Assembly: GCA_963783415.1 (NCBI GenBank)
Contig: CAWANN010000015.1
Coordinates: 42,711 to 106,710 of the forward strand
Length of the DNA: 64,000 nt
DNA from: an uncultured Solirubrobacterales bacterium
GTDB lineage: Bacteria; Actinomycetota; Thermoleophilia; Solirubrobacterales; Solirubrobacteraceae
Reading direction: 5' to 3'
Shown: positions 26,029 to 62,237 of the stretch, piece by piece
How the letters are laid out: the number at the start of each line of letters is the position of its first letter
How positions within the stretch are numbered: the stretch's first letter is position 1
Translations under genes and position numbers: made by a program
Notes under the pieces: model-generated
Database searches by the model: none
Told to the model about the DNA's origin: nothing
Seen by the model: only the letters and a program-made list of their open reading frames with translations

Positions 26029-28517
26029 TGCGCGTCCCGCTCGAATGGTTGAACGAATACGTCGTGCCCGATCTCGACACGGCCGCGCTCGCCGAGCGCC
26101 TCGCGATGACCGGCACCGAGGTCGAGCGCATCGAGCGCCACGGCGTTGCCGCGCTCGAGAACTTTGTGATCGGCCGCGTGCTCGAGGCTGAGCAGCACCC
26201 CAACGCCGATCGTCTACGAGTCTGCGTCGTAGACATCGGAGACGGGACCCCGTCGCAGATCGTGTGCGGCGCCCCCAACGTCGCCGCGGGCCAGACGGTG
26301 GCGGTCGCCAAGCCCGGCGCGGTGATGCCCGACGGGACCAAGCTCGGCAAGGCAAAGCTTCGCGGCATCGAGTCCAACGGGATGATTCTCGCCGAGGACG
26401 AGGTCGCGATCGGCACCGAGCACGACGGCATCATGGTGCTCGCCTACACCAACGGGCTGGAGCCGGGTACGCCGCTCAAGGATGTCCTTCCGATCGCCAC
26501 CGACGTGCTCGTGCTCGAGATCACGCCGAACCGGCCGGACTGCCTCGCGATCTATGGAGTCGCGCGCGAGGTCCATGCCGCCACCGGAGCGCCACTCGAG
26601 CCGCCCCCGTGGCGAGACGACCCCGGCGAGCCGGGCGAGGTCGCCGGCGCGAAGGTCATCGTCGAGTGCCCCGACCTGTGCCCGCGGTTCACCGCGCGTC
26701 TATTCGAGGACGTCAAGCTCGGACCGAGCCCGCTGTGGCTGAAGGCGCGGCTGATGGCCGCCGGGCAGCGCCCGATCTCGAACGTGGTCGACATCACCAA
26801 CTACGTGATGTTGCTGACCGGCCAGCCGCTCCATGCGTTCGACCTCGACCGCGTCGAAGGCGCAACGCTCACAGTCCGCCTCGCGCACGACGGCGAGCAG
26901 GTCGAGACGCTCGACGGCCAGACGCGCACGCTCGACTCGGACATGATGCTGATCGAGGACGCGGCCGGACCGACGTCGATCGCCGGCGTGATGGGCGGGG
27001 CACGCTCAGAGGTTGGCGACGACACAACGCGCGTGCTGATGGAGGCCGCGAACTGGGACGGGGCAAACATCCATCAGACGTCGCTGAAGCTCGGCCTTCG
27101 GAGCGAGGCGTCGAGCCGGTTCGAGAAAGGGATCCAGCCTGAGCAGGCGATCGACGCGCAGGCCGTCTCGACCCGGCTGATGCTCGACCTGGCCGGCGCG
27201 AGACTCGTCCCCGGCACGATCGACGTCGGCGGCGAGGGGCCGCCGCCGAAGACGATCCGTCTGCGCGAGGCCCGGGTCGAGAGCGTGCTGGGGGCGCCAA
27301 TCTCGCGCGCCCGGTGCGCCGAGATCCTGAACGCGCTCGAGTTCACTACCGCCGACGCTGAAGACGGCCTCGACGTGACCGTTCCGGCGTTCCGGCGCAC
27401 GGATGTCACTCGGGAGGCCGATCTGATCGAGGAGGTCGCGCGGCTCGACGGGCTCGACAAACTCCCGGCGACTCTTCCCTCGCGCCATGGCGCGTCGGGC
27501 CTGCTGACGGCGCGGCAGCGGCTCCGCCGGCGCGCCGCGGACGCGCTCGCCGCTCAGGGGCTGAACGAAATAGTCGGCTGGAGCTTCGCCCACCCCGACC
27601 TCGCCGACCGGCTCCGCCTCGGCGCCCAGCACCCGCTCCGGCGCGCGGTCACGCTGGCCAACCCGCTCTCGACGGACCTGTCGGAGCTCCGCACGACGCT
27701 GCTTGGCTCGCTGCTCGATGTGACCCAGCACAACCGCGCCCGTGGCATCGGCATGGTGCGGTTGTTCGAGGCGGGCGCCGTGTACCTGCCGACCGAGCCG
27801 GGGAATGGGGGAGGGTCGGCGGCGCCTGACGGCGGCGCCTCGGGGCTTACGTCGGCGGCGCCTGGCGGCGGCGCCTTGCTCCCGCGCGAGCCCTATCACG
27901 TGGGCGCCCTGCTCACCGGGACCGTTCGTCCGCCGAGTTGGCGCGACGGTCACCCGCCGGCGGTCGACTTCTTCGCCGCCAAGGGAGTGCTCGCGGGGCT
28001 GCTGGACACTCTCCGCGTGGACTGGCGCGTCGAGCCGGCGCACCAGCCGTTCCTGCACCCGGGACGATCGGCCGGGATCCTCGTCGGCGGAGTCATCGTC
28101 GGCTGGCTCGGCGAGATCCATCCGCTGGTGGCGGCCGAGTGGGACCTGCGCGACAGCGTCGCCGGGTTCGAGCTGAACCTCGACGCGGTGCCCGAGCCGG
28201 CTACCACGCTGTACCGCGAGGTGAGCGGGTTCCCCGACGTGCGCGAGGACATCGCGGTCGTCGTCCCCGAGCACGTGACGGCGGCTCAGCTGCTCGCGCT
28301 CGTCCGTCACGCCGGCGGCCGTCTGCTGGCGGGGGCCGAGGTCTTCGACGTGTATCGCGATCCGGAGCGGATCGGCGAAGGCAACGTGTCGCTGGCGGTG
28401 CGGCTCACCTACCGGGCCGCCGACCGGACGCTGACCGATGAGGAAGTCGCCGAGCGCCGCGAGGCGATCTCGGAGGCGGTTACCGACCAGCTCGGCGGGA
28501 GGATCCGTGCCGCATAG
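26028..28517 (+). CDS. pheT: Phenylalanine--tRNA ligase beta subunit
   Basis: HPNADRL, IVCGAPN, ITPNRPDC, SEASSRFEKG, FDX-ACB C-terminus (TLTDEEV). Confidence 0.98.
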   Translation: MRVPLEWLNEYVVPDLDTAALAERLAMTGTEVERIERHGVAALENFVIGRVLEAEQHPNADRLRVCVVDIGDGTPSQIVCGAPNVAAGQTVAVAKPGAVMPDGTKLGKAKLRGIESNGMILAEDEVAIGTEHDGIMVLAYTNGLEPGTPLKDVLPIATDVLVLEITPNRPDCLAIYGVAREVHAATGAPLEPPPWRDDPGEPGEVAGAKVIVECPDLCPRFTARLFEDVKLGPSPLWLKARLMAAGQRPISNVVDITNYVMLLTGQPLHAFDLDRVEGATLTVRLAHDGEQVETLDGQTRTLDSDMMLIEDAAGPTSIAGVMGGARSEVGDDTTRVLMEAANWDGANIHQTSLKLGLRSEASSRFEKGIQPEQAIDAQAVSTRLMLDLAGARLVPGTIDVGGEGPPPKTIRLREARVESVLGAPISRARCAEILNALEFTTADAEDGLDVTVPAFRRTDVTREADLIEEVARLDGLDKLPATLPSRHGASGLLTARQRLRRRAADALAAQGLNEIVGWSFAHPDLADRLRLGAQHPLRRAVTLANPLSTDLSELRTTLLGSLLDVTQHNRARGIGMVRLFEAGAVYLPTEPGNGGGSAAPDGGASGLTSAAPGGGALLPREPYHVGALLTGTVRPPSWRDGHPPAVDFFAAKGVLAGLLDTLRVDWRVEPAHQPFLHPGRSAGILVGGVIVGWLGEIHPLVAAEWDLRDSVAGFELNLDAVPEPATTLYREVSGFPDVREDIAVVVPEHVTAAQLLALVRHAGGRLLAGAEVFDVYRDPERIGEGNVSLAVRLTYRAADRTLTDEEVAERREAISEAVTDQLGGRIRAA
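27815..27877 (+). repeat. Two in-frame copies (36-bp period) of a 27-bp REP-like element in pheT
   Basis: GTCGGCGGCGCCTGACGGCGGCGCCTC (27815-27841) and GTCGGCGGCGCCTGGCGGCGGCGCCTT (27851-27877). Confidence 0.8.
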
Positions 28518-29550
28518 CGTGTCGGTGTTCGGGAGCGCCGGATTCACGGGCGCGCTGGCCGCGCGGCTGCTGTACCGCCATCCGTCGCTGGAGCTCCGCG
28601 CGATCACCGCGCGCAGCGACGTGGGGCGGAGGCTCGACGACCTGTATCCCCACCACCGGGTGCCGCTCGAGCTCGAGGAGCTCGACTTCGACCGCCACGC
28701 CGACGTCGACGCCGCGGTCGTCGCCTACCCCCACGGCGCGGCCGCACCGGTGGTGGCCGAGCTGCGCGAGAGGGGCGTTCGGGTTGTCGACCTGAGCGCC
28801 GACTTCCGCCTCCATGACCCCGCGGTGTACGGGCGCTGGTACCGCGAGCACCAGGCGCCGAAGCTCCTCGGCGAGGCGGTCTACGGCCTCCCAGAGCTTT
28901 ACCGCGAGGAGATCCGCGGCGCCTCGCTGGTCGCGAACCCGGGCTGCTACCCGACGGCGTCGCTGCTGGCGCTCGCGCCGCTGGCGCGGGCGGGGGTCAT
29001 CGCGGACGTGGTCATCGACGCGAAGTCCGGGGTGTCGGGCGCTGGCCGGGCCGCGACCGAGAAGACCCATTTCGTGACCGTCGACGAGAACCTGACCGCG
29101 TATGGCGTGCCGCGCCACCGCCACATCCCCGAGATCGAACAGGAGCTTGCGGTATTGGATCCCGCCCACCCCGACGTCCGGGTCACGTTCATTCCGCATC
29201 TCGTGCCGCTGGACCAGGGCGAGCTCGTCAGTTGCTACGTGACGCCGTCCGAGGCGATCCGCGACCTCGGAAGCCTCGAAGCGCTGTACGCCGACGCCTA
29301 CGCGGACGAGCCTTTCGTCGAGCTCGCCACCGGGCCGCCCGGTGTCCGTGATGTCCGCGAGACGAACATCTGCCGCATCTCCGTGCACCGGGACGAGCGA
29401 ACGGGGCGCGTGATCGTGTTCGGCGCGATCGACAACCTATGGAAGGGCGCGGCGTCCCAAGCAGTCCAGAACCTCAACCTGATGCTCGGCCTCCCCGAGG
29501 ACGAGGGAATCGGGGTCGGCCGCACGCCCGCTCGCGAGGCGCTCACGTGA
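28507..29550 (+). CDS. argC: N-acetyl-gamma-glutamyl-phosphate reductase
   Basis: GSAGFTG, DLSADFRL, ANPGCYPTA, DAKSGVSGAGR, IDNLWKGAASQAVQNLN; GTG overlaps the pheT end. Confidence 0.96.
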   Translation: MPHSVSVFGSAGFTGALAARLLYRHPSLELRAITARSDVGRRLDDLYPHHRVPLELEELDFDRHADVDAAVVAYPHGAAAPVVAELRERGVRVVDLSADFRLHDPAVYGRWYREHQAPKLLGEAVYGLPELYREEIRGASLVANPGCYPTASLLALAPLARAGVIADVVIDAKSGVSGAGRAATEKTHFVTVDENLTAYGVPRHRHIPEIEQELAVLDPAHPDVRVTFIPHLVPLDQGELVSCYVTPSEAIRDLGSLEALYADAYADEPFVELATGPPGVRDVRETNICRISVHRDERTGRVIVFGAIDNLWKGAASQAVQNLNLMLGLPEDEGIGVGRTPAREALT

Positions 29551-30794
29551 CGGCTACCGGGTCGTTCTTCGGATCGCGCTGGGTCGAGGTTCCGGGCAAC
29601 GTCTCCGAGCCCGGCGGTGGGTTGCCGAAGGGGTTCACGGCGGCCGGCGTGGCCTGCGGGATCAAGCCGAGCGGCGGGCTCGACCTCGGCCTGATCGTCT
29701 CGAGCGCGCCGGCCACGACGAGCGCGGCTCGCTTCACCAACTCGGGCACGCAGTCGGCGCCGGTGCTGCTGTGCCGGGAGCGGTGCTCGCTCGCCGGCAT
29801 CCGCGCGATCGTCGTCAATTCCGGGAACGCCAACGCGGCCACCGGGCGCCCGGGGTTCGAGAACGCCGTCAAGATGCAGGGCGCCGCGGCGCTGGCCAGC
29901 CGCTGCACGGAGAGCGCGGTGGCGGTCGCCTCGACCGGAGTGATCGGGGTGCCGCTCCCGGTGAGCTCCGCGATCACGGGAATCGTGCAGGCGACGCACG
30001 CGCTCCGCCCTGACGGCGAGGTCGACTTCGCGCACGCGATCCGAACCACCGACGCGCTCGACAAGCACGCCTGCCTCGACGTCGAGGTCGGCGCCGGCGC
30101 CGTGCGCCTGACCGCGCAGGCCAAGGGCGCCGGGATGATCTCGCCGAACTTCGCGACGCTCTTGTGCTTCGTCCAGACCGACGCGGCGTTGTCGCCGGAA
30201 ACCTGCGACCTGCTCCTCGGGGTCACGGTTAAGCGTTCGTTCGAGCGGATCAGCGTCGACGGCCAGCTGTCGACCAGCGACACGGTGATCCTCCAGGCCA
30301 GCGGTGAGTCGGGCGTGGCGATCGAGCCGGAGACCGAGGACGAGGTACGGTTCGGCGAGGCACTCGACGCGGTGCTCCGGCAACTGGCGCTGAACATCGT
30401 GCGCGACGGCGAGGGTGCCCGTCGCGTCGGCCGCGTCGTCGTCCGCGGAGGCACCGACGCGGTGGTGGACCGCGTCGCGCATGCGGTCGCGGACTCGCCG
30501 TTGGTCAAGACCGCGCTCTACGGAGGCGACCCGAACTGGGGGCGGATCATCCAGTCGGTCGGGATGGCGATGCCCGGCACCGCGCCGCTTGCGGTCGACA
30601 TCGCGATCGAGGGGATCCAGGTGTGCGCGCGCGGGCAGTACGTCCCGCACGACGAGGAGGCCCTGAAGGCGGCCGTTCAGGGCGAGGAGGTCGAGTACGA
30701 GATCGGCCTCCCCGGCGAGGGAGCCGAGACCGAGCGCTACTTCTCCGATCTCGGACACGAGTACGTGACGCTGAATGCCGAGTACACCACCTAG
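29547..30794 (+). CDS. argJ: Bifunctional ornithine acetyltransferase/N-acetylglutamate synthase
   Basis: STGVIG, AKGAGMISPNFATLL, VDGQLSTSDT, DGEGA, DPNWGRI, NAEYTT. Confidence 0.95.
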   Translation: MTATGSFFGSRWVEVPGNVSEPGGGLPKGFTAAGVACGIKPSGGLDLGLIVSSAPATTSAARFTNSGTQSAPVLLCRERCSLAGIRAIVVNSGNANAATGRPGFENAVKMQGAAALASRCTESAVAVASTGVIGVPLPVSSAITGIVQATHALRPDGEVDFAHAIRTTDALDKHACLDVEVGAGAVRLTAQAKGAGMISPNFATLLCFVQTDAALSPETCDLLLGVTVKRSFERISVDGQLSTSDTVILQASGESGVAIEPETEDEVRFGEALDAVLRQLALNIVRDGEGARRVGRVVVRGGTDAVVDRVAHAVADSPLVKTALYGGDPNWGRIIQSVGMAMPGTAPLAVDIAIEGIQVCARGQYVPHDEEALKAAVQGEEVEYEIGLPGEGAETERYFSDLGHEYVTLNAEYTT

Positions 30795-31662
30795 CACGCA
30801 CGACTCGCAGAGCCAGCGGGACGTCGGCACGCTGCTCGAAGCGCTGCCGTACATCCGCGAGTTCCACGGCAAGACCGTCGTGATCAAGTACGGCGGGGCG
30901 GCGATGATCGATGCCTCGCTCAAGGAAGAGTTCGCGCGCGACGTGGTGCTGCTCAAGTACGTCGGAATGAACCCGGTGATCGTGCACGGCGGCGGCCCGG
31001 AGATCACGAGCTACATGCAGCGCCTCGACCTGCCGGTGCAGTTCGTCGAAGGCCTGCGGGTGTCGAGCGCCGAGACCGTCGAGGTCGCAAAGATGGTGCT
31101 CGTCGGCAAGGTCAACAAGGACATCGTGCTGCTGATCAACCGCCACGGCCAGCCTGCGATCGGCCTGTGCGGGGACGACGGGCTGCTGTTCCGGGCCAAG
31201 CGCAAGACCGCGCCGAGCGGCCAGGACATCGGCTTCGTCGGCTCGATCGAACGCGTCGACGTCGACGTGCTGACCCATGTCGCGCAGGACTACATCCCCG
31301 TGGTGGCGAGCGTCGGCGCCGACCGCGACGGCAACTCCTACAACATCAACGCCGACGAGGCCGCCGGCGCCGTCGCCCGCGCGCTGACGGCGTACAAGCT
31401 GATGTTCCTCACCGACGTTCCCGGCTGGCTCGCCGACCCCGAGGACCCGGCGAGCGTCGTGTCGGAGGCGGGCGTCGATTCAGTGGTCGACGCGCTCGCG
31501 AGCATCGGCGGCGGGATGCGGCCAAAGCTCCAGGCCTGCGTCGACGCGATCCAGGGCGGCGTCTCGTTCGCGCACATCGTCGACGGCCGCGTGCCGCATT
31601 CGCTGCTGCTCGAGCTGTTCACGAACGCCGGCCTGGGCACGAAGATCAGGCCCGCCGTATGA
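30775..31662 (+). CDS. argB: Acetylglutamate kinase
   Basis: VVIKYGGAAM, VHGGGPEI, NINADEAA, GGMRPKL, LLLELFT. Confidence 0.97.
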   Translation: MPSTPPSTHDSQSQRDVGTLLEALPYIREFHGKTVVIKYGGAAMIDASLKEEFARDVVLLKYVGMNPVIVHGGGPEITSYMQRLDLPVQFVEGLRVSSAETVEVAKMVLVGKVNKDIVLLINRHGQPAIGLCGDDGLLFRAKRKTAPSGQDIGFVGSIERVDVDVLTHVAQDYIPVVASVGADRDGNSYNINADEAAGAVARALTAYKLMFLTDVPGWLADPEDPASVVSEAGVDSVVDALASIGGGMRPKLQACVDAIQGGVSFAHIVDGRVPHSLLLELFTNAGLGTKIRPAV

Positions 31663-32819
31663 GCGTCTCAGAGCTCCAGGACCTCGAGCGCGAGTACGCG
31701 GTGCCGACGTACGTGCGGAACCCGGTGCAGTTCGTGCGCGGCTCCGGCGTGCGCCTGTGGGATGCCGACGACAACGAGTACCTCGACTTCCTCGCCGGGA
31801 TCTCGGTGCTCAACGTCGGGCACTGCCACCCTCGGGTGGTGCAGGCCGTCCGCGAGCAGGCCGGTCGCCTTTCCCACGTCAGCAACCTCTACTACACCGA
31901 GCCCGCGCTGAAGCTGTCGGCGGCGCTGTCGCGGAGCTCGCTCGGGGGCAAGGTGTTCCTGTGTAACTCCGGCGCCGAGGCGAACGAGGCGGCGATCAAG
32001 CTCGCCCGGCGCGCGCGGCCCGGCGGGAACGTCGTCGTTTTTGAAGGGGCGTTCCACGGACGCACCTATGGCGCGCTTTCGGCCACCCCTCAGGAGACCA
32101 AGCAGGCGCCGTTCGCGCCGCTGGTGCCGGGGTTCGTCGTCGTCCCGAAGGATCCGGGCGCGCTTTACGGGGCGGTCGACGACCGCACCGCGGCGGTGCT
32201 GCTCGAGCCGATCCAGGGGGAGACCGGGATCCACGTCCTGTCCGACGACCTGCTTCTGGCGGCGCGCGAGGCGTGTGACCGGACCGGTGCCGCGCTGATC
32301 TTCGACGAGATCCAGTCAGGGATGGGGAGGACCGGCACCCTGTGGGCCTACGAGCAGACCGACGTCATCCCCGACGCGCTCACGAGCGCCAAGGCGCTCG
32401 GCGGTGGGCTGCCGATTGGAGCTTTGATAACCGGGCCACGGCTGGGTGACACGCTCCAGCCCGGCGACCATGGCTCGACGTTCGCCGGCGGTCCCGTGGT
32501 GTCGTCCTCGGCACTCGTCGCGCTCGAGATCTGCTCGGATCCGGAGCTGCTCGCGCGCGTGCGTGCCGCCGGGCAGCGACTTGCGGCGGGGCTTGCGACC
32601 CTGCCGTATGTTGGGGCGGTGCGTGGGCGGGGACTGATGCTGGCGATCGACGTCGATCCGGAGATCGACGCGGCCGAGCTGGCGCGGCGCGCCTTGCTCG
32701 AGCAGCGGCTGGTCGTCAACGCCACCGGCCCGGCGACGATCCGCCTCGAGCCGCCCCTGATCGTCTCCGACGGCGAGCTCGACGAGGCCGTGGCGCGGCT
32801 GGAGGCGCTGGCGCCGTGA
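31659..32819 (+). CDS. argD: Acetylornithine aminotransferase
   Basis: YLDFLAGI, NSGAEANEAAIK, FHGRT, EPIQGETG, FDEIQSGMGRTG, AKALGGG. Confidence 0.95.
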   Translation: MSVSELQDLEREYAVPTYVRNPVQFVRGSGVRLWDADDNEYLDFLAGISVLNVGHCHPRVVQAVREQAGRLSHVSNLYYTEPALKLSAALSRSSLGGKVFLCNSGAEANEAAIKLARRARPGGNVVVFEGAFHGRTYGALSATPQETKQAPFAPLVPGFVVVPKDPGALYGAVDDRTAAVLLEPIQGETGIHVLSDDLLLAAREACDRTGAALIFDEIQSGMGRTGTLWAYEQTDVIPDALTSAKALGGGLPIGALITGPRLGDTLQPGDHGSTFAGGPVVSSSALVALEICSDPELLARVRAAGQRLAAGLATLPYVGAVRGRGLMLAIDVDPEIDAAELARRALLEQRLVVNATGPATIRLEPPLIVSDGELDEAVARLEALAP

Positions 32820-48730: not shown

Positions 48731-49768
48731 GTGACCACGCGCCGATTGATACGGGTGGTGAAGATCGCGATCGCGATCGCGATCCTGGCCCTGTTTCCAC
48801 AGGTGTTCAGCAACCCGGCCACGACCTCGATCGCGGTGTTCACGCTGATCTTCATGGTCGCGGCGTCCTCCTGGAACATATTCTCCGGTTACTCCGGCTA
48901 CATCGCGCTTGGCCACGCGGTCTACTTCGGAGTCGGCGCCTATGCCCTGACGCTGCTTGCCAACCATCTGGGTTTCGCCGCGGGGTGGGGGATATTCGCG
49001 TTGGTGCCGGTCGCCGGGATCATCGCCGGCCTGGTGGCCGTCCCCACGGGGTTGATCGCGCTCCGCGCCCGCCGCCACACGTTCGTGGTGATCACGATCG
49101 CGTTCATGTTCGTCTTCCAGCTCGCGGCGAGCAACTTCGCCTTCACCGGAGGGACCTCGGGCCTCCAGCCGCCGACGCCGCTGTGGTCGGCCGCCTCCTA
49201 CAACGACCACTTCTATTACGTGACCGCGATCGTCCTGGTCGCGACGGTCGCGCTGTCGTGGCTGGTTCGCCGATCGCGCTTCGGCCTCCAGCTGTTCGCG
49301 ATCCGCGATGACGAGGAGCGGGCCCGCGGCCTCGGGGTTCGCGTGGCGCGGGTCAAGCTGACCGCATTCGTCACCTCGGCAATCCCCGTCGGGATGGTCG
49401 GCGGGATCTACGCGTACTTCCTCGGCCAGATATTCCCGCAGTTCGCGTTCGACCCGCTGTTCGACCTCTCGATTGCGTTGATGGCGTTCATCGGCGGTCT
49501 GGGGACGGTGTGGGGACCACTGCTGGGAGCGTTCGTGCTGGAATCGCTCCAGCAGTACTTCACCGAGCAATCGGGCGCGAGCCAGGTGTACCTGATCATC
49601 TACGGCGGGCTCTTCCTCGCGGTCATCCTGCTGCTCCCGCGGGGCATCATTCCGAGCATTCAGGAGCTGCTCGAGCGATGGCGCACGCGGGGCGCGGAGC
49701 AGGACCGGGCCCTGGAGGAGGACGCCGGCCGCGCGGGCGACGTCGTCAAGGCGGCGGGGGCGCGATGA
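48731..49768 (+). CDS. ABC permease (LivM-like)
   Basis: WNIFSGYSGYIALGHAVYFGVGAY, AIRDDEERARGLGV, FIGGLGTVWGPLLGA. Confidence 0.92.
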   Translation: MTTRRLIRVVKIAIAIAILALFPQVFSNPATTSIAVFTLIFMVAASSWNIFSGYSGYIALGHAVYFGVGAYALTLLANHLGFAAGWGIFALVPVAGIIAGLVAVPTGLIALRARRHTFVVITIAFMFVFQLAASNFAFTGGTSGLQPPTPLWSAASYNDHFYYVTAIVLVATVALSWLVRRSRFGLQLFAIRDDEERARGLGVRVARVKLTAFVTSAIPVGMVGGIYAYFLGQIFPQFAFDPLFDLSIALMAFIGGLGTVWGPLLGAFVLESLQQYFTEQSGASQVYLIIYGGLFLAVILLLPRGIIPSIQELLERWRTRGAEQDRALEEDAGRAGDVVKAAGAR

Positions 49769-50562
49769 GCGCGTTCATCGGGAATTTGTCGGCGGCGCCT
49801 GGCGGCGGCGCCTTACTCGAGGCCGAGGGCGTGTGCAAGGCGTTCGGCGGTCTCCAGGCACTCTCGGACTGCTCGCTGTCGGTCCCCAAAGGGTCGATCG
49901 CCGGCCTGATCGGACCCAACGGGTCGGGCAAGACGACGCTGTTCAACGTGATGACGGGCTACGAGCGGTGCAATGCCGGCGAGATCCGGTTCGCCGGCGA
50001 GTCGATCACCGGCGCCACGCCCGAGCGCGTGTTCGGACTCGGGGTCGGGCGGACGTTCCAGATCACCAGGCTCTTCTTCCGGCTGAGCGTGCTCGAGAAC
50101 ATCCTCGTGGCCACGCAACGGCACGAGGGATGGATGCGCAGCGTGGCCCGCCGGGCGGGCTCGGCGGCAGAGCGCCGGCGGGCGCTGGAGATGCTCGAGT
50201 TCGTGGGGCTCGAGCGGTTGGCGAACGGCCCCGCCGGCAATCTGTCGTACGGGCAGCGCAAGCTGCTGGAACTGGCGTCGCTGCTGGTCGCCGACCCCGC
50301 CGTGCTGCTCCTCGACGAGCCGACCGCGGGCGTCAACCCGGTCCTGATCGAGCAGCTGTCCGAGCGCATTCGCGAGCTCAATCGCGCCGGCAAGACATTC
50401 CTGGTCGTCGAGCACAACATGGAGTTCGTGATGGGGCTGTGTCACGAGGTGACGGTGCTGCACCAGGGGCGGACGCTCGTCAACGGGACGCCCGAGCAAG
50501 TCCGCGCGAACCCGGCGGTGCTCGACGCGTACCTGGGCGGAGGCGACGACGATGACTTCTAG
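49765..50562 (+). CDS. ABC ATP-binding protein (LivG-like)
   Basis: GPNGSGKTT, LSYGQRKLLE, LLDEP, VEHNM. Confidence 0.93.
   Translation: MSAFIGNLSAAPGGGALLEAEGVCKAFGGLQALSDCSLSVPKGSIAGLIGPNGSGKTTLFNVMTGYERCNAGEIRFAGESITGATPERVFGLGVGRTFQITRLFFRLSVLENILVATQRHEGWMRSVARRAGSAAERRRALEMLEFVGLERLANGPAGNLSYGQRKLLELASLLVADPAVLLLDEPTAGVNPVLIEQLSERIRELNRAGKTFLVVEHNMEFVMGLCHEVTVLHQGRTLVNGTPEQVRANPAVLDAYLGGGDDDDF
49788..49814 (+). repeat. In-frame copy of the 27-bp REP-like element
   Basis: GTCGGCGGCGCCTGGCGGCGGCGCCTT, identical to 27851-27877. Confidence 0.8.
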
Positions 50563-54590: not shown

Positions 54591-55106
54591 TCAAGCGCTC
54601 AGCCCGGCCAGCAGCTGATTCGCCGCGGCGTTGAACCGCGTGAGGTCGCCGTACGGCCGGGCCACGAGCATCGCGCCCTCCAGCGTGCTCAGAATGCCCT
54701 GCGCCACGTCCTCCGGGTCGCCGCTGTATTTCAGCGTGTGATCCGTCTTGCCCCCGGTGAGCACCTGCGCGAGCCACTTCTGGTTCTCGTCGAAGAAGCT
54801 GATCACCGCAGTGCGCATCGGCTTGGGCAAGGTCTGATACTCGGCGGCGAGGATCCCGCACATGCACATCCGCTTGCCCCGCAGTACCTCGGCGTACAGG
54901 TCCGCGTAGGCCTCGAGCTTCGCACGGGCATCGGGCTGGTCGCGATCGATCCGTTCGAGCGCTTCCGAGAACCGGTCGGTGTAACGGGTGATCAGGGCCT
55001 GCCCGAGCTCAGCCTTTCCCGGGTAGTGGTAGTGGAGGCTGGCCTTGGTGATGCCGAGCTCGGTCGCGATGTCGGCGTAGCTGAAGTTGTTGAACCCGCG
55101 AGAAAT
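54591..55106 (-). pseudogene. TetR family regulator missing its first helix and a canonical start
   Basis: Frame reads stop-R-D-N-I-SRGFNNFSYADIATELGITKASLHYHYPGK...MCMCGIL; no ATG/GTG/TTG before the HTH. Confidence 0.75.
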
Positions 55107-55129
55107 GTTATCCCTTTAGGGTTGAGAGC

Positions 55130-55185
55130 TTACCTACTGGAAGGTAGGTTATCGGACGTCGGGACCTCTACCTACTAGTAGGTAG
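55130..55185. promoter_or_regulatory. Two TetR operators
   Basis: Perfect palindrome CTACCTACTAGTAGGTAG (55168-55185) and variant TTACCTACTGGAAGGTAG (55130-55147). Confidence 0.75.
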
Positions 55186-55213
55186 GTAAACACCAAACAA
55201 AGAGGAGGGGGCC

Positions 55214-55575
55214 ATGGGCACCGTCACCACCTTCGACTCGACCGCTTCACCCGGGCGGCCGAGGAGCGCGACGCCGCGACGCAGGTGTCGATGTACGGGC
55301 CGGATGCGGTCGTGACGATCACCAACAAGATCTCCCAGCCGGGTGCGCCGCGGGTGCTGCGCAAGCGGGAGGAGATCAAGGGTTGGCTCGAGGACACGTA
55401 CAGCCGCGAGATGACCCACAAGGTCAGGCACCGCGTCCTCGACGACACCGGCGCGGCCTACACCCAGGCATGCCGGTACCCCGACGGCACCAACGTGTTG
55501 TGCTCGACCGTGATCGAGCTCGACGGCGGAGTGATCTCGGCGCAGAGCGTGCTCGAGGTCTGGGACGAGGCATGA
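55214..55575 (+). pseudogene. SnoaL/NTF2-like protein with a 1-nt frameshift near 55238
   Basis: GAGGAGG RBS and MGTVTTFD in one frame, DRFTRAAEERDAATQVSMYGPDA... in the next. Confidence 0.65.
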
Positions 55576-55578
55576 GCC

Positions 55579-56652
55579 ATGTCGACCACGATCCAGCCTG
55601 TCGATCAGGCAAAGCTCGATGAGTTCATGGGCCGGTTCGTGGGTGATCTGGGCGCCGCGCTAAGCGCGGCGCTCGTGGTCATCGGCGATCGGTTGGGCCT
55701 CTACCGGGCGATGGCCGACGGTGAGCCGGTCGGGCCCGATGAGCTGGCGGAGCGGACGGGCACCGATGCACGCTATGTGCGCGAGTGGCTGTCCAACCAG
55801 GCCGCGAGCGGCTACGTCAACTACGACTCCGGCCAGGGAACCTTCTCGCTATCGCCCGAGCAGGCCTTCACGCTTGCCCAGGAGGACAGTCCGGCGTTCG
55901 TGCCGGGCGCGTTTCAGGTGGCGACGGCGGCGATCAAGGATGAGGAGAAGATCGAGCGTGCGTTCGTCGGCGGGCACGGAGTCGGCTGGCACGAGCATCA
56001 CGACGATCTGTTCAGCGGCACCGAGCGGTTCTTCCGGCCAGGGTACGCGGCCAATCTCGTGTCGTCGTGGATTCCGGCGCTCGACGGGGTCGAGGGCAGG
56101 TTGCAAACCGGGGCGCGCGTGGCCGACGTCGGCTGCGGCCACGGCGCGTCGACGCTCCTGATGGCGCAGGCGTTCCAGCGCTCGGAGTTCGTCGGGTTCG
56201 ACTACCACGCACCGTCGATCGAGCACGCTCGCGCGGCGGCGGCGAAGGCCGGCCTGGGCGACCGGGCGCGTTTCGAGGTCGCGTCCGCCAAGGACTATCC
56301 CGGAGACGCGTACGACCTCATGTGCATGTTCGACTGCCTGCACGACATGGGCGACCCGGTCGGCGCCGCCGCCCACGTGCTGCGGAGCCTCGCGCCGGAC
56401 GGGACCTGGCTGATCGTCGAGCCCTACGCCGGCGACCGGCTCGAGGACAACCTCAACCCGGTCGGCCGCGTGTACTACGGCGCATCGACGCTCGTGTGCA
56501 CGCCGGCATCGCGGGCTCAGGAGGTCGGCCTGGCGCTAGGCGCCCAGGCCGGCGAGGCTCGGCTCCGCGAGGTGGTCACCGCCGGCGGCTTCACGCGCTT
56601 TCGCCGCGCGACCGAGACGCCGTTCAACCTGGTTCTGGAGGCGCGCCCGTAG
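55579..56652 (+). CDS. Class I SAM-dependent methyltransferase with N-terminal wHTH (Rv2258c-like)
   Basis: IGDRLGLY, RYVREWL, VADVGCGHG, FDCLHDMGDP, TPFNLVLEARP. Confidence 0.9.
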   Translation: MSTTIQPVDQAKLDEFMGRFVGDLGAALSAALVVIGDRLGLYRAMADGEPVGPDELAERTGTDARYVREWLSNQAASGYVNYDSGQGTFSLSPEQAFTLAQEDSPAFVPGAFQVATAAIKDEEKIERAFVGGHGVGWHEHHDDLFSGTERFFRPGYAANLVSSWIPALDGVEGRLQTGARVADVGCGHGASTLLMAQAFQRSEFVGFDYHAPSIEHARAAAAKAGLGDRARFEVASAKDYPGDAYDLMCMFDCLHDMGDPVGAAAHVLRSLAPDGTWLIVEPYAGDRLEDNLNPVGRVYYGASTLVCTPASRAQEVGLALGAQAGEARLREVVTAGGFTRFRRATETPFNLVLEARP

Positions 56653-56655
56653 GGA

Positions 56656-58014
56656 TTATCCGAGCGCTAGCGATGCCCCGGGGTCGCCCGCGGGCATCGC
56701 CTCCTGCGTCTCGTGGTTCAGGACCGTGTTGCGCTCCGAGGTGACCTCGCGCTCGAGCGGCAGCGACCCGCCGACCGTCTGGTACCGCCTGCCGGCGATC
56801 ACGAGATCCTCGGCGGGGAAGCGGGTGATCACCTCGCAGCCGTCCGCGGTAACGACCAGCTGCTCCTCGATCCGCGCCGCCGACCAGCCGTCGCTGGCCG
56901 GCCAGAACGTCTCGAGCGCGAACACCATGCCCTCCCGGATCTCCTCGGGATGGTCGAGCGAGACGAGCCGGCTGAAGATCGGCTTCTCCCAGATCGACAG
57001 ACCGACACCGTGTCCAAACTGGAGCGCGAACGCCGCCTCCTCGTCGGAGAACCCGAACTCCTGCGCCCGCGGCCAAACGCCGGCCACCTCGCCGGTGGTG
57101 GCGCCGGGACGGATCAGTTCGATCGCCGCGTCGAGGTAGTAGCGGCACCGCCTGTAGGCGTCGACCAGCGCTCGCGAGGCACTCGCCACCGCGAACGTGC
57201 GGTAGTAGCACGTGCGGTAGCCCATGAAGCTGTGGAGGATGTCGAAGTACGCGGGGTCGCCGGGCCGGAGCGCACGATCGGTGTACACGTGCGGGTGGGG
57301 GTTGCAGCGCTCGCCCGAGATCGCGTTGACCCCCTCCACGAACTCCGACCCCATGTCGTAGAGCACCTTGTTGACCAGGCCGACGCACTCGTTCTCGCGC
57401 ATCCCTGGCTTCATCGCGCGGTACAGCTCCTCGTAGGCGGCGTCGACCATCGCGCACGCGTGGTTGAGCAGCGTGATCTCGTCCTGGGTCTTGATCACGC
57501 GGGCCTGCTGCATCAACTGCTGGCCGTCGACGACCTGGATTCCCCGGGCCTGCAGCGCGAACAGCACGGGTGGCTCGACGGCGTCGACGCCGACCGGCTC
57601 ACCGAGGAGGCCGCGCTGCTCAAGCTCGACCGCGATCTTGTCCGCGACGTCCTCGGCCCGGCCGGACTCGGGGGCCATCGCGCCGCGCAGGGTTGAGATG
57701 CCGGCGCGAGAGCGACCCTGCGCCAGCCATGGGTTGTACAGCTGATGGTGGCGCGCGGCCGACCCGAAATCCCACATGATCGGCTCGTCGTGCTGGGGGA
57801 GCAGGCAGAAGCGGTTCAGCTTGTCCTGCGCCCAGGTGCCGATGTGGGTCGCCGTGATGTAGCGGATGTTCGTCATGTCGAAGCACAGCAGTGCTCCGAG
57901 CGAGGACTCCGCCAGCAGGCCGGCGATCCGCGCGAGCCGCTCCGTGCGCAGGCGATCGAAGCGGACGCGCTCCTCCCAGTCGACGGCCATCGTCCCGTAG
58001 GTGCGGAGTCCCAC
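56656..58014 (-). CDS. M24 (Xaa-Pro peptidase/creatinase/DddP-like) family protein
   Basis: LLCFDMTNIRY, IKTQDEI, FDILH, FGHGVG, ALETF, RIEEQL; GTG 6 nt after TAAGCT. Confidence 0.88.
   Translation of the reverse strand: MGLRTYGTMAVDWEERVRFDRLRTERLARIAGLLAESSLGALLCFDMTNIRYITATHIGTWAQDKLNRFCLLPQHDEPIMWDFGSAARHHQLYNPWLAQGRSRAGISTLRGAMAPESGRAEDVADKIAVELEQRGLLGEPVGVDAVEPPVLFALQARGIQVVDGQQLMQQARVIKTQDEITLLNHACAMVDAAYEELYRAMKPGMRENECVGLVNKVLYDMGSEFVEGVNAISGERCNPHPHVYTDRALRPGDPAYFDILHSFMGYRTCYYRTFAVASASRALVDAYRRCRYYLDAAIELIRPGATTGEVAGVWPRAQEFGFSDEEAAFALQFGHGVGLSIWEKPIFSRLVSLDHPEEIREGMVFALETFWPASDGWSAARIEEQLVVTADGCEVITRFPAEDLVIAGRRYQTVGGSLPLEREVTSERNTVLNHETQEAMPAGDPGASLALG
56670..56700. terminator. 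Hairpin at the convergent junction
   Basis: GCGATGCCC...GGGCATCGC 9-bp stem. Confidence 0.35.
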
Positions 58015-58024
58015 AGCCGAAGCT

Positions 58025-58038
58025 TACAATCGTTTGCA
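58025..58038. promoter_or_regulatory. LacI-type operator overlapping the M24 -10
   Basis: TACAATCGTTTGCA (reverse complement TGCAAACGATTGTA). Confidence 0.65.
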
Positions 58039-58137
58039 CCCGGCGCGAGACGCGTGCGACTGAGTTTTTCGCTGGATATCAGCGAAAAACACAGTCGCGT
58101 CGGCGGGTTGACGCAACAAGCGACAGTCCGGTACGCT

Positions 58138-58151
58138 TGCAAACGATTGCA
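58138..58151. promoter_or_regulatory. LacI-type operator upstream of the dehydrogenase operon
   Basis: TGCAAACGATTGCA. Confidence 0.7.
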
Positions 58152-58185
58152 TCAGGGGACCGGGACGCTAGGAGAATTGACTGCT

Positions 58186-59136
58186 ATGCAGGATCGAAAC
58201 CTGAACGAGAAGCGCCTCGGCTGGGTGGGTGCGGGCCGCATGGGTCTGGCGCTCGCGACCCGTCTGCTCGACGCCGGGTGCGACGTCGCGGTCTACAACC
58301 GCACGCGGTCGAAGGCCGAGCCGCTGGCCGCGCTCGGCGCGACGATCGTCGATGCGCCGGCGGACCTCGGTGACCGTGACATCGTGTTCACGATCGTCGC
58401 GGGGCCGGCCGACTTCCAGCAGGTGGTCACCGGACCCGAAGGGGTGTTGTCGGGGTCGGGACAGGCGCCGGCGGTCATCGTCGATTCCACGACCGTGTCG
58501 GCGGAGGCGTCCGCCGTCGTGAGGGCCGAGGCCGAGAGGCGCGGGACCGCGCTGCTGGCCGCGCCCGTCAGCGGGAACCCGAAGGTGGTCAAGGCCGGCC
58601 GGCTGACGATGGTCACCTCAGGACCCGAGGAGGCGCATCGCGCGGCGCTGCCCTACCTCGAGATCATGGCCGCGGGCGGCGTGACGTATTGCGGCGACGG
58701 AGACGGCGCCCGGCTGGTCAAGGTGTGCCACAACCTGATGCTCGGGATCGTCGCGCAGACGCTGGCGGAGATCCTCGTGCTCGCCGAGAAGGGCGGCGTG
58801 TCGCGGGCGGACCTGATGGAGTTCCTGAACAACAGCGTGATGGGCTCGACCTTCACCCGCTACAAGACGCCGGCCTACGTCAACCTGGATTTCACGCCGA
58901 CGTTCACCCCCGAGCTCCTGCTCAAGGACTTCGATCTTGGACACCAGGCGGCGCGCGAGCTCGGCGTGCCGATGCCGGTGGCCTCGGCCGCGCAACAGGT
59001 CGTCCAGGCTTTGATCGGCAACGGCTACACCGACGTCGACTTCGCCGCGCTGATCGAGCTCCAGGCCAAGGCGTCGTCGCTCGAGCTCGAGTCCGAGGCC
59101 GCGCCCGTGTCCGATGGGCTGGAGCGCGCCGCGTGA
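58186..59136 (+). CDS. NAD(P)-dependent beta-hydroxyacid dehydrogenase (HIBADH/6PGD-like)
   Basis: GWVGAGRMG, VYNRTRSK, AAPVSG, KVCHN, KDFDL; AGGAG RBS. Confidence 0.9.
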   Translation: MQDRNLNEKRLGWVGAGRMGLALATRLLDAGCDVAVYNRTRSKAEPLAALGATIVDAPADLGDRDIVFTIVAGPADFQQVVTGPEGVLSGSGQAPAVIVDSTTVSAEASAVVRAEAERRGTALLAAPVSGNPKVVKAGRLTMVTSGPEEAHRAALPYLEIMAAGGVTYCGDGDGARLVKVCHNLMLGIVAQTLAEILVLAEKGGVSRADLMEFLNNSVMGSTFTRYKTPAYVNLDFTPTFTPELLLKDFDLGHQAARELGVPMPVASAAQQVVQALIGNGYTDVDFAALIELQAKASSLELESEAAPVSDGLERAA

Positions 59137-60107
59137 CGGTCGACGCCGCGGTCGGCACCGAGGCGCCCGCGGCGTACCTCGAGCGCTACGGGCGGATGCT
59201 CCTGATTCGCCTGTTCGAGACCGAGATGCAGCGGCTGTTCCTGAAGGGCGAGGTCCACGGCACCACCCACCTGTGCGCGGGCCAGGAGGCCGTGCCGGTG
59301 GGGGTCTGCTCGGCGCTCGAGCCCGACGACTACCTCGCCGGGACCTACCGCGGCCACGGCCACGCGCTCGCCAAGGGCACCGACCCCGGCGCGCTGATCG
59401 CGGAGATGCTCGGCCGCGCCACCGGCGTCTGCGCCGGGCGGGCCGGATCGATGAACGTGATCGACATCGAACACGGGTTGGTCGGCTGCTTCGGGATCGT
59501 CGGCGGCAGCATCGCCGCCGCCACCGGCGCCGCGCTCGCCGCCAAGCGCCAGGGCCGCGTCGCGGTCGCGATGTTCGGCGACGGCGCGACTAACCAGGGG
59601 TACTTCCACGAATGCCTGAACTTCGCCAAGGTGTTCTCCCTGCCCGCCGTGTTCGTGTGTGAGAACAACTTCTACGGAGAGTTCACGCCGATGACGGCGG
59701 TGACCGCCGGCCACGACATCGCGGCGCGCGCCGGCGCGTACGGGATCCCCGGCGATGTCGTCGACGGCAACGATGTGTGGGCGGTGCGTGAGGCCGCCGT
59801 CGAGGCCGTCGCACGCGCTCGAAGCGGCTCTGGGCCGACGCTGCTCGAGTGCCAGACATATCGCCATCACGGCCACTCGAAGGCGGACCCGGCGCGCTAC
59901 CGCCCTCCGGAGGAGGTCGAGCGGTGGCTGGCGCGCGACCCGCTCGGGATCGCGCGGGCGCGTCTGGTCGAGCTCGGGGTCGCCGAGTCGGAGATCGACG
60001 AGGTCGAGGAGGCGACCCGCGCCCGGATGGATCGGGCGGTGGAGGCGGCGCTCGCCGCGCCGTACCCCGACCCGCAGGCCGAGCACGCGACGGAGTTCGC
60101 CCCATGA
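59133..60107 (+). CDS. TPP-dependent 2-oxoacid/acetoin dehydrogenase E1 alpha
   Basis: HLCAGQEA, TYRGHGH, FGDGATNQG...ENN, TYRHHGHS. Confidence 0.93.
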   Translation: MTVDAAVGTEAPAAYLERYGRMLLIRLFETEMQRLFLKGEVHGTTHLCAGQEAVPVGVCSALEPDDYLAGTYRGHGHALAKGTDPGALIAEMLGRATGVCAGRAGSMNVIDIEHGLVGCFGIVGGSIAAATGAALAAKRQGRVAVAMFGDGATNQGYFHECLNFAKVFSLPAVFVCENNFYGEFTPMTAVTAGHDIAARAGAYGIPGDVVDGNDVWAVREAAVEAVARARSGSGPTLLECQTYRHHGHSKADPARYRPPEEVERWLARDPLGIARARLVELGVAESEIDEVEEATRARMDRAVEAALAAPYPDPQAEHATEFAP

Positions 60108-61090
60108 CCCTCGAGTTCCGCGCCGCGATCCGCGAGGCGATCATCGAGGAGATGGAGCGCGACCAGTCGGTCGTGTTCTTCGGCGAGGACGTCGCCGCCG
60201 AACAGGGCGGCGTGTTCGCGGTCACGCCCGGCATCCAGGAACGATTCGGATCCGAGCGGGTGTTCGACACGCCGATCTCCGAGCTCGCGCTGGCGGGCGC
60301 GGCGTTCGGCGCCGCCGTCGCCGGCCTGCGCCCGATCATCGAGATCATGTTCGGCGACTTCATGGGGCTGGCGATGGACTCGCTCGTCAACCAATCCGCC
60401 AAGTACTGGTACCTGTCAGCAGAGCAGCGCAGCGTGCCGCTCGTCGTCCGCTCGGCCGTCGGCGGCGGTGGCCGGTTCGGCGCGATCCACTCCCAGACGC
60501 ACGCGACCTGGTTCCAGGGGATCCCCGGGCTGAAGATCGCGTTCCCGTCCTCGCCGGCGGAGGCGAAGGGGCTTCTCAAGGGCGCGATCCGCGACGATAA
60601 CCCGGTGATCTTCCTCGAGCACAAGCGCCTCTACTCGGTCAAGGGTCCAGCTCCCGCGGTCGCCGACGAGGTCATCCCGCTGGGCCGCGCGCGCGTGGCG
60701 CGCTCCGGCAGCGACGTGACGATCGTCTCCGCCGGCAAGGGCGTGCCCGACGCGCTCGAAGCCGCCGAGCAGCTTGCCCGCGGCGGCGTCGAGGCCGAGG
60801 TCATCGACGTGCGCACACTCCGGCCGCTCGATCTCGACACCGTGCTCGAGTCGGTGGCTCGGACCAACCGCCTGCTGGCCGTCGAGGAGGGGCCTCGCAC
60901 CGGGGGCTGGGGATCGGGTTTGCTCGGCCGGGTCGCCGAGCACGGGCTCCACGATCTCGACGACGCCTGGCTGCTCGCCACCGACGAGCTTCCGATCCCC
61001 TACAGCCCGACGCTCGAGGACGCGTTCATCCCAGGCGCCGCCGCGATCGCGGCCGCGGTAGCGGAGCGCGCGGGCATCGCGGTGAGCTGA
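60104..61090 (+). CDS. TPP-dependent dehydrogenase E1 beta
   Basis: FGEDV, DTPISE, EIMFGDF, HSQ, FLEHKRLY, DVRTLRPLD. Confidence 0.93.
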   Translation: MTLEFRAAIREAIIEEMERDQSVVFFGEDVAAEQGGVFAVTPGIQERFGSERVFDTPISELALAGAAFGAAVAGLRPIIEIMFGDFMGLAMDSLVNQSAKYWYLSAEQRSVPLVVRSAVGGGGRFGAIHSQTHATWFQGIPGLKIAFPSSPAEAKGLLKGAIRDDNPVIFLEHKRLYSVKGPAPAVADEVIPLGRARVARSGSDVTIVSAGKGVPDALEAAEQLARGGVEAEVIDVRTLRPLDLDTVLESVARTNRLLAVEEGPRTGGWGSGLLGRVAEHGLHDLDDAWLLATDELPIPYSPTLEDAFIPGAAAIAAAVAERAGIAVS

Positions 61091-61091
61091 C

Positions 61092-62237
61092 ATGCCCGAG
61101 ATCGTGATGCCGCGGTTGTCGGACTCGATGGAGGAGGGCACGATCGTCCGCTGGCTGAAGCAGGACGGCGATGAGGTGTCGAAGGGTGAGCCGCTCGCCG
61201 AGGTCGAGACCGACAAGGCGACCGTCATGTTCGATGCGGACGCCGACGGGACGCTGCGGATCCTCGCCGGCGAGGGCGAGACCGTGGCGATCGGCGGCGT
61301 GATCGGGAGCATCGGCGACGCGCTGCCCCGATCTCCGGCGCCCGCCCAGCCCGGCCCCGCCGCGCCGGCCCCCGCCGCCGCGGGCAAATCATCCGATGCC
61401 GGCAACGGGTCCGACCGCGTCAAGGCATCACCGCTCGCCCGGCGGATCGCGCGCGAATCGGAGGTCGACCTACGCGGGCTGAGCGGCTCCGGTCCCGGCG
61501 GGCGAATCGTCAAGGCTGACGTGCCCAAGCGCGGCGCCAAGGGCGTCGTCACGACCGAGCAGCCCTCCCGCATCCAGGTCCAGATCGCCCAGCGGATGGC
61601 GGAATCCAAGGCGACGATCCCGGACTTCACGCTGCATGCGGAGGTCGCCATGGAGCAGGCGGTCGAGCTTCGCTCGCAGCTGCGCAAGGCGGCGCCTGAC
61701 GGCGGCGCCTTGGCGGTGCCGTCCTACAACGACATGGTGGTCAAGGCGTGCGGGCTCGCGCTGCGCGAGCATCCGCGCGCGAACGCCGCCTACCGCGACG
61801 GCGCGTTCGAGCTGTACGAGCGCGTCAACGTCGGGATCGCGGTCGCGGCGCACGACAGCCTCATCGTCCCGACCGTATTCGACGCCGACCGCAAGTCGTT
61901 GCTCGAGATCGCGCGGGAGACGCGGACGCTCGTCGAGCGCGTCCGGTCACACCAGATCACGCCCGCCGAGCTGTCGGGAGGCACGTTCACGGTGTCCAAC
62001 CTGGGGATGTACGGCGTGGCCGGCTTCGAGGCGATCATCAATCCGCCGCAGGCTGCGATTCTGGCGGTCGGGGAGCTGCAAGAGGTCCCGGTCGTCCGCG
62101 AGCGGCAGGTGGTTCCCGGCTCGCGGATGAGCATCGCGCTCACGTGCGACCACCGGATTCTGTATGGCGCCCCGGCCGCGGAGTTCCTCGCGCGCGTCCG
62201 GCAACTGCTCGAGCAGCCGCTCTACTTGCTCGTCTGA
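61092..62237 (+). CDS. Dihydrolipoamide acyltransferase E2
   Basis: Lipoyl motif EVETDKA, KASPLARR binding domain, TVSNLG, catalytic DHRILYG. Confidence 0.94.
   Translation: MPEIVMPRLSDSMEEGTIVRWLKQDGDEVSKGEPLAEVETDKATVMFDADADGTLRILAGEGETVAIGGVIGSIGDALPRSPAPAQPGPAAPAPAAAGKSSDAGNGSDRVKASPLARRIARESEVDLRGLSGSGPGGRIVKADVPKRGAKGVVTTEQPSRIQVQIAQRMAESKATIPDFTLHAEVAMEQAVELRSQLRKAAPDGGALAVPSYNDMVVKACGLALREHPRANAAYRDGAFELYERVNVGIAVAAHDSLIVPTVFDADRKSLLEIARETRTLVERVRSHQITPAELSGGTFTVSNLGMYGVAGFEAIINPPQAAILAVGELQEVPVVRERQVVPGSRMSIALTCDHRILYGAPAAEFLARVRQLLEQPLYLLV
61688..61711 (+). repeat. In-frame 24-bp core of the REP-like element
   Basis: GGCGGCGCCTGACGGCGGCGCCTT, encoding AAPDGGAL. Confidence 0.75.

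Follow-up and report, generated by a model that had tools for sequence, protein, structure and literature searches.

Small palindromic repeats of bacteria are usually treated as extragenic. To our knowledge, in-frame spread through housekeeping genes is a textbook matter only for the Rickettsia palindromic elements (RPE), whose mobiliser is unknown. In actinobacteria, MIRUs are short tandem units of 46–101 bp at gene boundaries, often a multiple of three in length, with frames that run into the start or stop codon of a neighbouring gene and with a copy number that varies between strains; they are not hairpin-centred, and they lie between the genes of operons, not deep inside genes. Here we describe a repeat unit of about 36 nt, built around a 22-nt hairpin core, which stands in frame in three unrelated genes (pheT, a livG-like gene and the gene of an E2 dihydrolipoamide acyltransferase) of a stretch of 64,000 nt, hereafter the window. 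The window corresponds to C15:42711–106710 of a metagenome-assembled genome (MAG) of an uncultured Solirubrobacterales bacterium, a soil actinobacterium. The host assembly (G000; 5.63 Mb, 68.7% G+C, 24 contigs) is 94% complete, and all genomes compared are MAGs. We consider the repeat, with a probability of roughly 85%, to be a non-autonomous, REP-like selfish DNA element that spread to new sites on repeated, independent occasions in a few species belonging to one uncultured genus of Solirubrobacterales.

REP/REPIN elements with RAYT transposases are known from Enterobacteria, Pseudomonas and Stenotrophomonas (PMC2817692, PMC3116915, PMC3337134). The repeat described here resembles them in being an imperfect, G+C-rich palindrome of about 35 nt with a conserved mismatch and a short conserved 5' head, in its number of about 100 copies per genome, its restriction to certain species, its insertion without target duplication and its clustering at gene ends. 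It differs in that the repeat-rich genomes have no detected RAYT/Y1 gene, in that it forms head-to-tail arrays rather than inverted doublets or alternating BIMEs, and in that 43% of its loci overlap coding sequence, whereas REPs are extragenic; its head carries GTC, which is analogous to the GTAG of REPs but not identical with it, and its host is a Solirubrobacterales actinobacterium. The RPEs, reviewed in PMC10969869, are likewise palindromic repeats found many times in frame in unrelated housekeeping genes, with a conserved peptide, at fold-compatible sites and with no mobilising enzyme known. Unlike our repeat of 36 nt, they measure about 100–150 bp, belong to an unrelated lineage, have an unrelated sequence and are not reported as tandem arrays; in our case, both orientations are predicted to provide an open frame, and the element often supplies a stop codon.

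The intragenic small mobile sequences of enterobacteria, ERIC and RU-1 to RU-3, are 100–170 bp long, with terminal inverted repeats and usually with target duplications (PMC2759123). Together with intragenic MITEs they share with the present repeat a small size, non-autonomy, open frames and occasional in-frame fusions, but intragenic copies are the exception there and a large share here, and the unit here is far smaller. Two features of MITEs were looked for and not found: there is no target duplication at 12 pairs of filled and empty sites, and no insertion sequence (IS) of the host genome carries the core at its ends. With its tandem units at gene boundaries in an actinobacterium, the repeat also recalls the MIRUs. 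A CRISPR array was considered and rejected, as the spacers of 11–20 nt are identical within an array and housekeeping genes adjoin the repeats. We found no paper that deals with repeats of this kind in Solirubrobacterales.

The repeat unit and its insertions in PheT, LivG and E2

The 22-mer GGCGGCGCCTGRCGGCGGCGCC occurs exactly at window positions 27818–27839, 27854–27875, 49791–49812 and 61688–61709, in every case on the + strand. Against these four matches, dinucleotide shuffling predicts 0.01, and in 100 shuffles a count of four was never reached. The original prediction, made from the letters of the window, had described a repeat of 24–27 bp at these four sites; this is borne out by the exact core, as is the 27/27 identity between 27851–27877 and 49788–49814, both of which read gtcggcggcgcctggcggcggcgcctt. 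The two copies in pheT are spaced by 36 bp. All four copies are in the frame of long open reading frames (ORFs) and give the peptide (S)AAP(D/G)GGA(L/S). The placement on the sense strand and in one frame is therefore as had been claimed, although the common frame is largely trivial, since the sense unit has one stop-free frame.

The core is predicted to fold as had been proposed, into a G+C stem of 4+4 bp with a central G.G mismatch (C.C on the opposite strand) and a 4-nt loop. Its predicted energy is −12.4 kcal/mol as DNA (z = −3.3), and −17.7 and −15.8 kcal/mol as RNA in the two orientations. The two arms of the hairpin also form a 9-nt direct repeat. The entire unit of about 36 nt consists of a semi-conserved leader GGRWTKGTC, the 22-nt core hairpin with a TGAC loop, and a tail TYRG. 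These limits come from a conservation profile of 51 independent loci of the host genome, in which the leader covers positions −9 to −1 and the tail positions +1 to +4, with information falling outward. GTC stands just before the stem in 47–49 of the 51 loci, with K and T ahead of it.

The gene pheT (26028–28517, + strand), for the beta subunit of phenylalanyl-tRNA synthetase, is an ORF of 829 amino acids that matches PheT chains of the PDB. Its first unit, at 27807–27842 (+), has the leader GGGGGAGGGTC, the core at 27818–27839 with a TGAC loop and the tail TCG, and reads GGGSAAPDGGAS; the second, at 27843–27878 (+), has the leader GGGCTTACGTC, the core at 27854–27875 with a TGGC loop and the tail TTG, and reads GLTSAAPGGGAL. 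Orthologues of pheT were found in 29 of 31 genus genomes. Compared with orthologues the window gene shows a gain of 72 nt (24 amino acids), that is, two 36-nt units, which is missing from 13 orthologues including those of G001 (87% amino acid identity), G016, G045 and G007. The 13 orthologues read AVYLPTEPGQ-LPREPYH, and the window gene reads AVYLPTEPGN, then the insert GGGSAAPDGGASGLTSAAPGGGAL, then LPREPYH. In M. tuberculosis PheT, going by the sequence of its structure, the loop at this site is naturally long. In G020, a genome of a sister species, the core is missing from the site; what stands there is GGGGATGGAACAAGGTCGGC, a remnant resembling the leader, together with four additional residues, perhaps a decayed copy of the repeat. 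The pheT gene of G020 (L027/L030, G020:C4:1002040–1004360) is also split between different frames, and one alignment shows five TGA codons in frame; these are probably assembly frameshifts in that MAG.

The livG-like ABC ATPase gene (49765–50562, +) begins with an ATG that shares bases with the stop codon of the permease gene just before it (ATGA), and the start at 49765 is kept in relatives. Its N-terminal unit at 49780–49815 (+), with the leader GGGAATTTGTC, the core at 49791–49812 (TGGC loop) and the tail TTA, reads GNLSAAPGGGAL. This single unit follows codon 5 (a gain of 36–39 nt) in the host and in its sister G020 only, which are 93% identical in DNA there and have the TGGC loop in common; G001, G016, G045 and G007 have MNALIEAEG and no unit.

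The E2 gene (61092–62237, +) has 80 orthologous loci in our set and matches E2 catalytic domains of the PDB. Its copy had been listed as an equal of the other three. The core is indeed exact (61688–61709), but the 5' leader is lost because the unit is truncated: it extends over 61688–61712 (+), with the tail TTG, and reads (K)AAPDGGAL. At the site of the window gene, G020 and two further MAGs, L032 and L036, hold a full 36-nt unit, GGAGAAsGGTC-core-TTR following GAT, and L031, L033, L034 and L035 are empty at that very nucleotide. Compared with the full allele, that of the window lacks 30 nt, deleted between GGC repeats; the net gain is 6 nt, by which the ancestral RGGD is replaced by APDGGAL. 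The site is variable in length, and other lineages carry indels of their own there.

Judged from these alignments, all three cases in the window are insertions, that in E2 being an insertion followed by a deletion, and orthologues without the peptides exist for each. The original prediction of peptide inserts in three unrelated proteins, at tolerant loops or termini, thus agrees with the gains seen in PheT, LivG and E2 (the last one later reduced by 30 nt) and with the position of the window sites in length-variable loops or at a terminus.

Copies across the host genome and inside its genes

Copies were counted by mismatch to the 22-mer GGCGGCGCCTGRCGGCGGCGCC, with the reversed, non-complemented 22-mer as a control. 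The host genome has 83 exact copies, 106 at up to one mismatch and 121 at up to three mismatches, in 61 loci, and the reversed control has none at up to one mismatch; at four mismatches the core and the control score alike (34 each). The expectation of many copies throughout the genome, in numbers above those of a null, is borne out by these figures as it is by the four copies in the window against 0.01 in its shuffles.

Of the 61 loci, 40 hold a single copy, and the other 21 hold arrays of 2–10 units. Wherever two copies are adjacent within 200 nt (55 pairs), they are arranged head-to-tail, at periods of 33–42 nt (mode 36), and no array mixes strands; arrays in coding sequences have a period of 36 or 42. 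Array spacers are 11–20 nt long, uniform inside one array and different among arrays. Nine half units in the host genome (leader, one arm, tail) have lost one arm and the loop, and show that the two arms, direct repeats at the same time, have recombined. A pair of groEL-like paralogous segments, G000 C2:621541–623984 and C23:95077–97519, has the element right after the stop codon in both, as a full unit in one and as a half unit without one arm and the loop in the other. At G000 C11:160304–160649, an antisense array of 10 units, seven of them with a G4-to-C change that weakens the stem, gives about 120 residues of KAPPSGAADxSP repeats and splits a SnoaL_4-like ORF.

Genes were called with a simple codon-statistics caller built for this analysis (5135 genes, 85% coding fraction), and context, frame and orientation were tallied for 51 loci. 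Of these loci, 22 are in coding sequences, 5 span the stop codon of the host gene and 24 are intergenic. The 22 coding loci (43%) are far fewer than random insertion would give at a coding fraction of 85% (p = 4e-12), and most coding copies are within 70 nt of a gene end. The intergenic copies lie in 5 divergent, 5 convergent and 14 tandem spacers. About half of all loci touch the 3' end of a gene; in about 10 the core starts right after the stop codon, in about 10 the reverse complement of the TTA/TCA tail of the element is the stop codon of the adjacent gene, and in at least 2 the TGA of the loop is the stop codon of the gene.

With Pfam, units could be placed in the linker between regions 2 and 4 of an ECF sigma factor, in the linker between the UvrB-interaction and RID domains of Mfd, and in a loop of a membrane protein of the LPG_synthase_TM family. 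Others are in the middle domain of an acyl-CoA dehydrogenase (antisense), in the C-terminal domain of a GH79 protein, in the C-terminal tails of AOR, CoaBC and HisD, and in the N-terminal tail of LeuA. Five further insertions in relatives are well inside genes, and a sixth is at a stop codon.

The sense unit has a single open frame, SAAPDGGA(L/S), and 11 of 11 sense copies use this small-residue frame, as is expected because the other two are closed by the TGA of the loop and the TAG of the tail. In the antisense unit two frames are open. One of them, (K/E)APPSGAAD, is used by 10 of 13 copies; the remaining three, in the RRRRQAPP frame, all lie close to a terminus, at most 17 residues away. 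A LivG/F-like ABC ATPase of a second liv operon (G000 C20:11798–11927) ends in 47 residues that come from four antisense units.

Loop variants (TGAC to TGGC, TGCC or TAAC) are found in 9 of the 22 coding loci of the host and in none of the 29 loci outside coding sequences (p = 1.6e-4). The variable site is core position 12, the A of the loop, which corresponds to window positions 27865 and 49802. In the relatives G016, G063, G066 and G060, TGGC copies are in coding sequences in 7 of 9 cases and TGAC copies in 9 of 30 (p = 0.019; p = 0.024 after merging of likely orthologous sites). When all loop variants of these four relatives are pooled, the difference (9 of 16 against 9 of 30) is not significant (p = 0.12). 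Simple ageing of the copies does not explain the variants, because synonymous positions of the core are unchanged. Possible causes are a TGGC subfamily, selection on the protein (Asp to Gly) or the inactivation of elements that lie inside genes.

Spread within the genus and the search for a mobiliser

The distribution of the repeat was examined in 61 genomes of the genus and 16 genomes from other families of Solirubrobacterales, by counting the 26-mer at up to one mismatch. Eight of the 61 are positive, with 103, 68, 25, 23, 23, 9, 4 and 3 copies, and none of the 16, which is in line with the lineage-specific repeat that had been supposed. The positive genomes are G000, G020, G063, G066, G016, G007, G001 and G060. 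Mapping of flanks from G020 to the host gave 24 syntenic loci, about 15 of which are filled in both genomes and 9 in G020 alone; from G016 to the host, none of 10 syntenic loci is filled in the host. It follows that the family was active in each lineage on its own. Loci shared by the host and G020 differ in their number of units, for example 8 and 2, 5 and 2, or 1 and 3.

No target-site duplication was seen at 12 filled/empty pairs. All six clean gains of 36 nt map inside genes, five of them 51–686 nt from the stop codon and one at a stop codon; gains of 34 and 35 nt are intergenic, and one of 38 nt is at a predicted gene start. The exact 26-mer occurs in at least 120 metagenome stretches. A phage vector was rejected, as the exact 26-mer has no match in viral contigs. 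The identical 26-mer is kept in species that have PheT proteins 77–80% identical and no common insertion sites.

A spreader of the RAYT/IS200 tnpA type had been put forward for the repeat; RAYT genes typically occur once per genome, with REPs on either side. The corresponding family, PF01797, has no match in the host genome, in a search that is positive in 6 of 14 control genomes including E. coli, and none in six relatives (MAGs) with at least 9 copies (9–68), among them G020, G063, G066, G016 and G007. It is present in G001, G002, G014 and G046, genomes with 0–4 copies of the repeat. A Y1 profile derived from the genus found nothing in the six-frame translation of the host or in 478 kb of metagenomic DNA surrounding 80 repeat copies. 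There are no inverted doublets of the REPIN type among the 55 adjacent pairs, and no orientation bias with respect to GC skew/replication strand (27/51) or gene strand (20/51). With no Y1 gene linked to the repeat in the host, the 61 genus genomes or the 80 metagenome loci, a RAYT/IS200 driver was rejected; the RAYT proposal fails every test run and is not supported.

Other candidates were treated similarly. An IS with hairpin ends was rejected, as the IS30-, IS1182/IS5- and IS3-like repeats found by self-BLAST do not adjoin the core. Genes between inverted copies (six intervals in the host, a 1.7-kb G020-specific segment in L179, and L232 and L239) include no transposase; identifiable genes between nearby copies are housekeeping, GNAT, XRE-cupin or DsbA-like genes, and the 657 nt between the copies of the metagenome locus L239 hold no convincing ORF. 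No protein family recurs beside the copies of the 80 metagenome loci beyond common housekeeping paralogues. The locus L179 (G020:C4:263800–267700), whose GNAT/XRE segment is not in the host genome, has two in-frame units (NLSAAPDGGASANLSAAPDGGAL) in a DsbA/HCCA-isomerase-like ORF at 2810–2867 and two antisense units near the N-terminus of a GNAT ORF at 1605–1699. A known RNA family was also rejected, since Rfam gave no match over threshold for the repeat in the window; the sole match over threshold in the window is a tRNA gene at 20394–20466 (−).

Origin and meaning of the repeat

How the repeat came about can be discussed in terms of several explanations. A classical REP/REPIN family mobilised by a RAYT, an IS200-like Y1 HUH transposase, would suit a short imperfect palindrome with a conserved mismatch, GTC beside the stem and about 100 copies, and the missing target-site duplication is as in HUH single-strand transposition; the MAGs do not cover their genomes in full, and some members of the genus do have Y1_Tnp. 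Yet PF01797 is missing from the host, with 6 of 14 controls positive, and from relatives with 9–68 copies, the Y1_Tnp carriers G001, G002, G014 and G046 hold 0–4 copies, and the genus profile is negative both in the six-frame translation and in the 478 kb of metagenome. Since, moreover, 55 of 55 adjacent pairs are direct, replication-strand bias is lacking (27/51) and an extragenic family of this type is disfavoured because 43% of the loci are in coding sequences, we regard this origin as very improbable. The repeat could instead be a structure of benefit to the host (a stabiliser of mRNA 3' ends, a terminator without U-tract, or a protein-binding site), kept at gene ends, with the coding copies as by-products. 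Its presence or absence and its unit number vary even between sister species, however, and 53 of 61 genus genomes do without it; intergenic copies show no preference for terminator positions, the 5 divergent, 5 convergent and 14 tandem spacers being close to chance, and the element occurs in both orientations relative to the neighbouring gene and in arrays of up to 10 units, also on the promoter side. Such a role is quite improbable, even if the RNA hairpin is very stable in both orientations (−17.7 and −15.8 kcal/mol), the core directly follows the stop codon at about 10 loci, about half of the loci touch a gene 3' end and the core is identical in species without common insertion sites.

It is also conceivable, but rather unlikely, that there is no dedicated mobiliser, and that copies arise by template switching, microhomology capture (Ku/LigD end joining) or gene conversion via GGCGGCGCC-like patches, followed by slippage. 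This would agree with the lack of a transposase tied to the repeat, with the variable leader and inserted length (33–42 nt), with the target in E2, where CGCGGCGGCGAC followed by GCC resembles a core arm, and with the visible recombination of direct-repeat arms (half units, and the 30-nt deletion in E2 between GGC repeats). Most empty sites, however, are unlike the element; about 78 copies with an identical 22-nt core and a 26-mer kept across species look like sequence-specific recognition, not random capture, and the patchy distribution (8/61 in the genus) suggests a transmissible factor. As for convergent Gly/Ala-rich low-complexity linkers or assembly artefacts, a G+C content of 69% makes GGC/GCC strings common, and at four mismatches the core and the reversed control are equal (34 each). 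But copies are identical over 22–27 nt including synonymous positions, the same unit is present in non-coding arrays and in both orientations, the control gives 0 against 106 real copies at up to one mismatch, and the same insertions are at orthologous sites in independently assembled MAGs and metagenomes. The counts, together with the orthologous filled and empty sites, already refute this explanation, and the chance left to it is negligible.

We therefore return to a REP-like selfish repeat. New copies arrive without target-site duplication, and units then multiply locally into head-to-tail arrays, whose number of units differs between sister species. Units shed one arm and the loop to become half units, or are eroded when part of them is deleted, as has happened in E2 and probably in the pheT gene of G020. 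Selection would remove most coding insertions; the survivors would be those that keep the frame, avoid reading through the stops of the element and lie in a linker, in a loop of variable length or at a terminus, where they are predicted to add a short, flexible peptide. Those in PheT, LivG and E2 would be such survivors. We infer that a trans-acting protein other than a Y1/RAYT recognises the invariant hairpin core, because the same 26-mer is present in species with about 77–80% identical orthologues and no common sites.

Several points weigh against the selfish-repeat explanation. No mobilising gene was found, so that transposition is deduced from the insertion pattern. Four genomes share the site of the unit in E2 and its unusual leader, and there are closer E2 orthologues without the unit; this occupancy therefore needs a hot spot, precise loss or allele exchange. 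At single-copy orthologous sites the core is about 6% divergent and the flanks 9.7%, so that the core is not clearly more conserved. With MAGs that are incomplete (the host being 94% complete), a single-copy or plasmid-borne mobilising enzyme could be missed, and start codons near N-terminal repeat copies are uncertain with codon-statistics gene calls.

A more tentative idea, which we hold to be possible but doubtful, is that the family owes its mobility to an enzyme specific for the hairpin, other than a Y1/RAYT and of a type so far unconnected with REP-like repeats, and that it is perhaps adapted to life inside genes. Such an adaptation may be seen in the modal unit of 36 nt, in one open small-residue frame per orientation, and in stop codons of its own in the loop and tail. 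The loop mutation would then mark either inactivation of the element at the DNA level or adaptation of the inserted peptide.

Two further repeats of the host genome were noted. A second family of hairpins, outside the window, consists of CCGCCGGGCACGGACGCCCGGCGGAACGG followed by CCCCAcGGAcGCCGAGCG and has 25 copies, 23 of them intergenic (for example G000 C22:95653–95681, C2:122054–122082 and C11:371493–371521; L180–L183). Its stem shows compensatory changes, CCGCTGGGC with GCCCAGCGG and CCGCCAGGC with GCCTGGCGG, and in Rfam it resembles CRISPR-DR29 alone, below threshold. Over 4.3 kb at the end of a contig (G000 C13:99733–104065), the sequence is internally repetitive, with 20 high-scoring self-alignments and 12-copy 18-mers such as GGCGGCGCCAGCGGCAGCAGCTCGGTGACGCTGAGCGGCACGG, and is likely a tandem-repeat protein gene.

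In summary, a unit much smaller than the RPEs has likewise spread in frame through housekeeping genes, here in a free-living, high-G+C soil actinobacterium. On the practical side, the repeat complicates the annotation of these MAGs, with problems at gene boundaries and others that look like frameshifts, and it is a potential marker for strain typing because its copy number varies between genomes. Since a RAYT was not found, a concrete question is what recognises and copies such a hairpin. The insertion polymorphisms between sister species, the clean empty sites, the arrays, the half units and the partial deletions make it possible to trace the birth, filtering and decay of peptide inserts.

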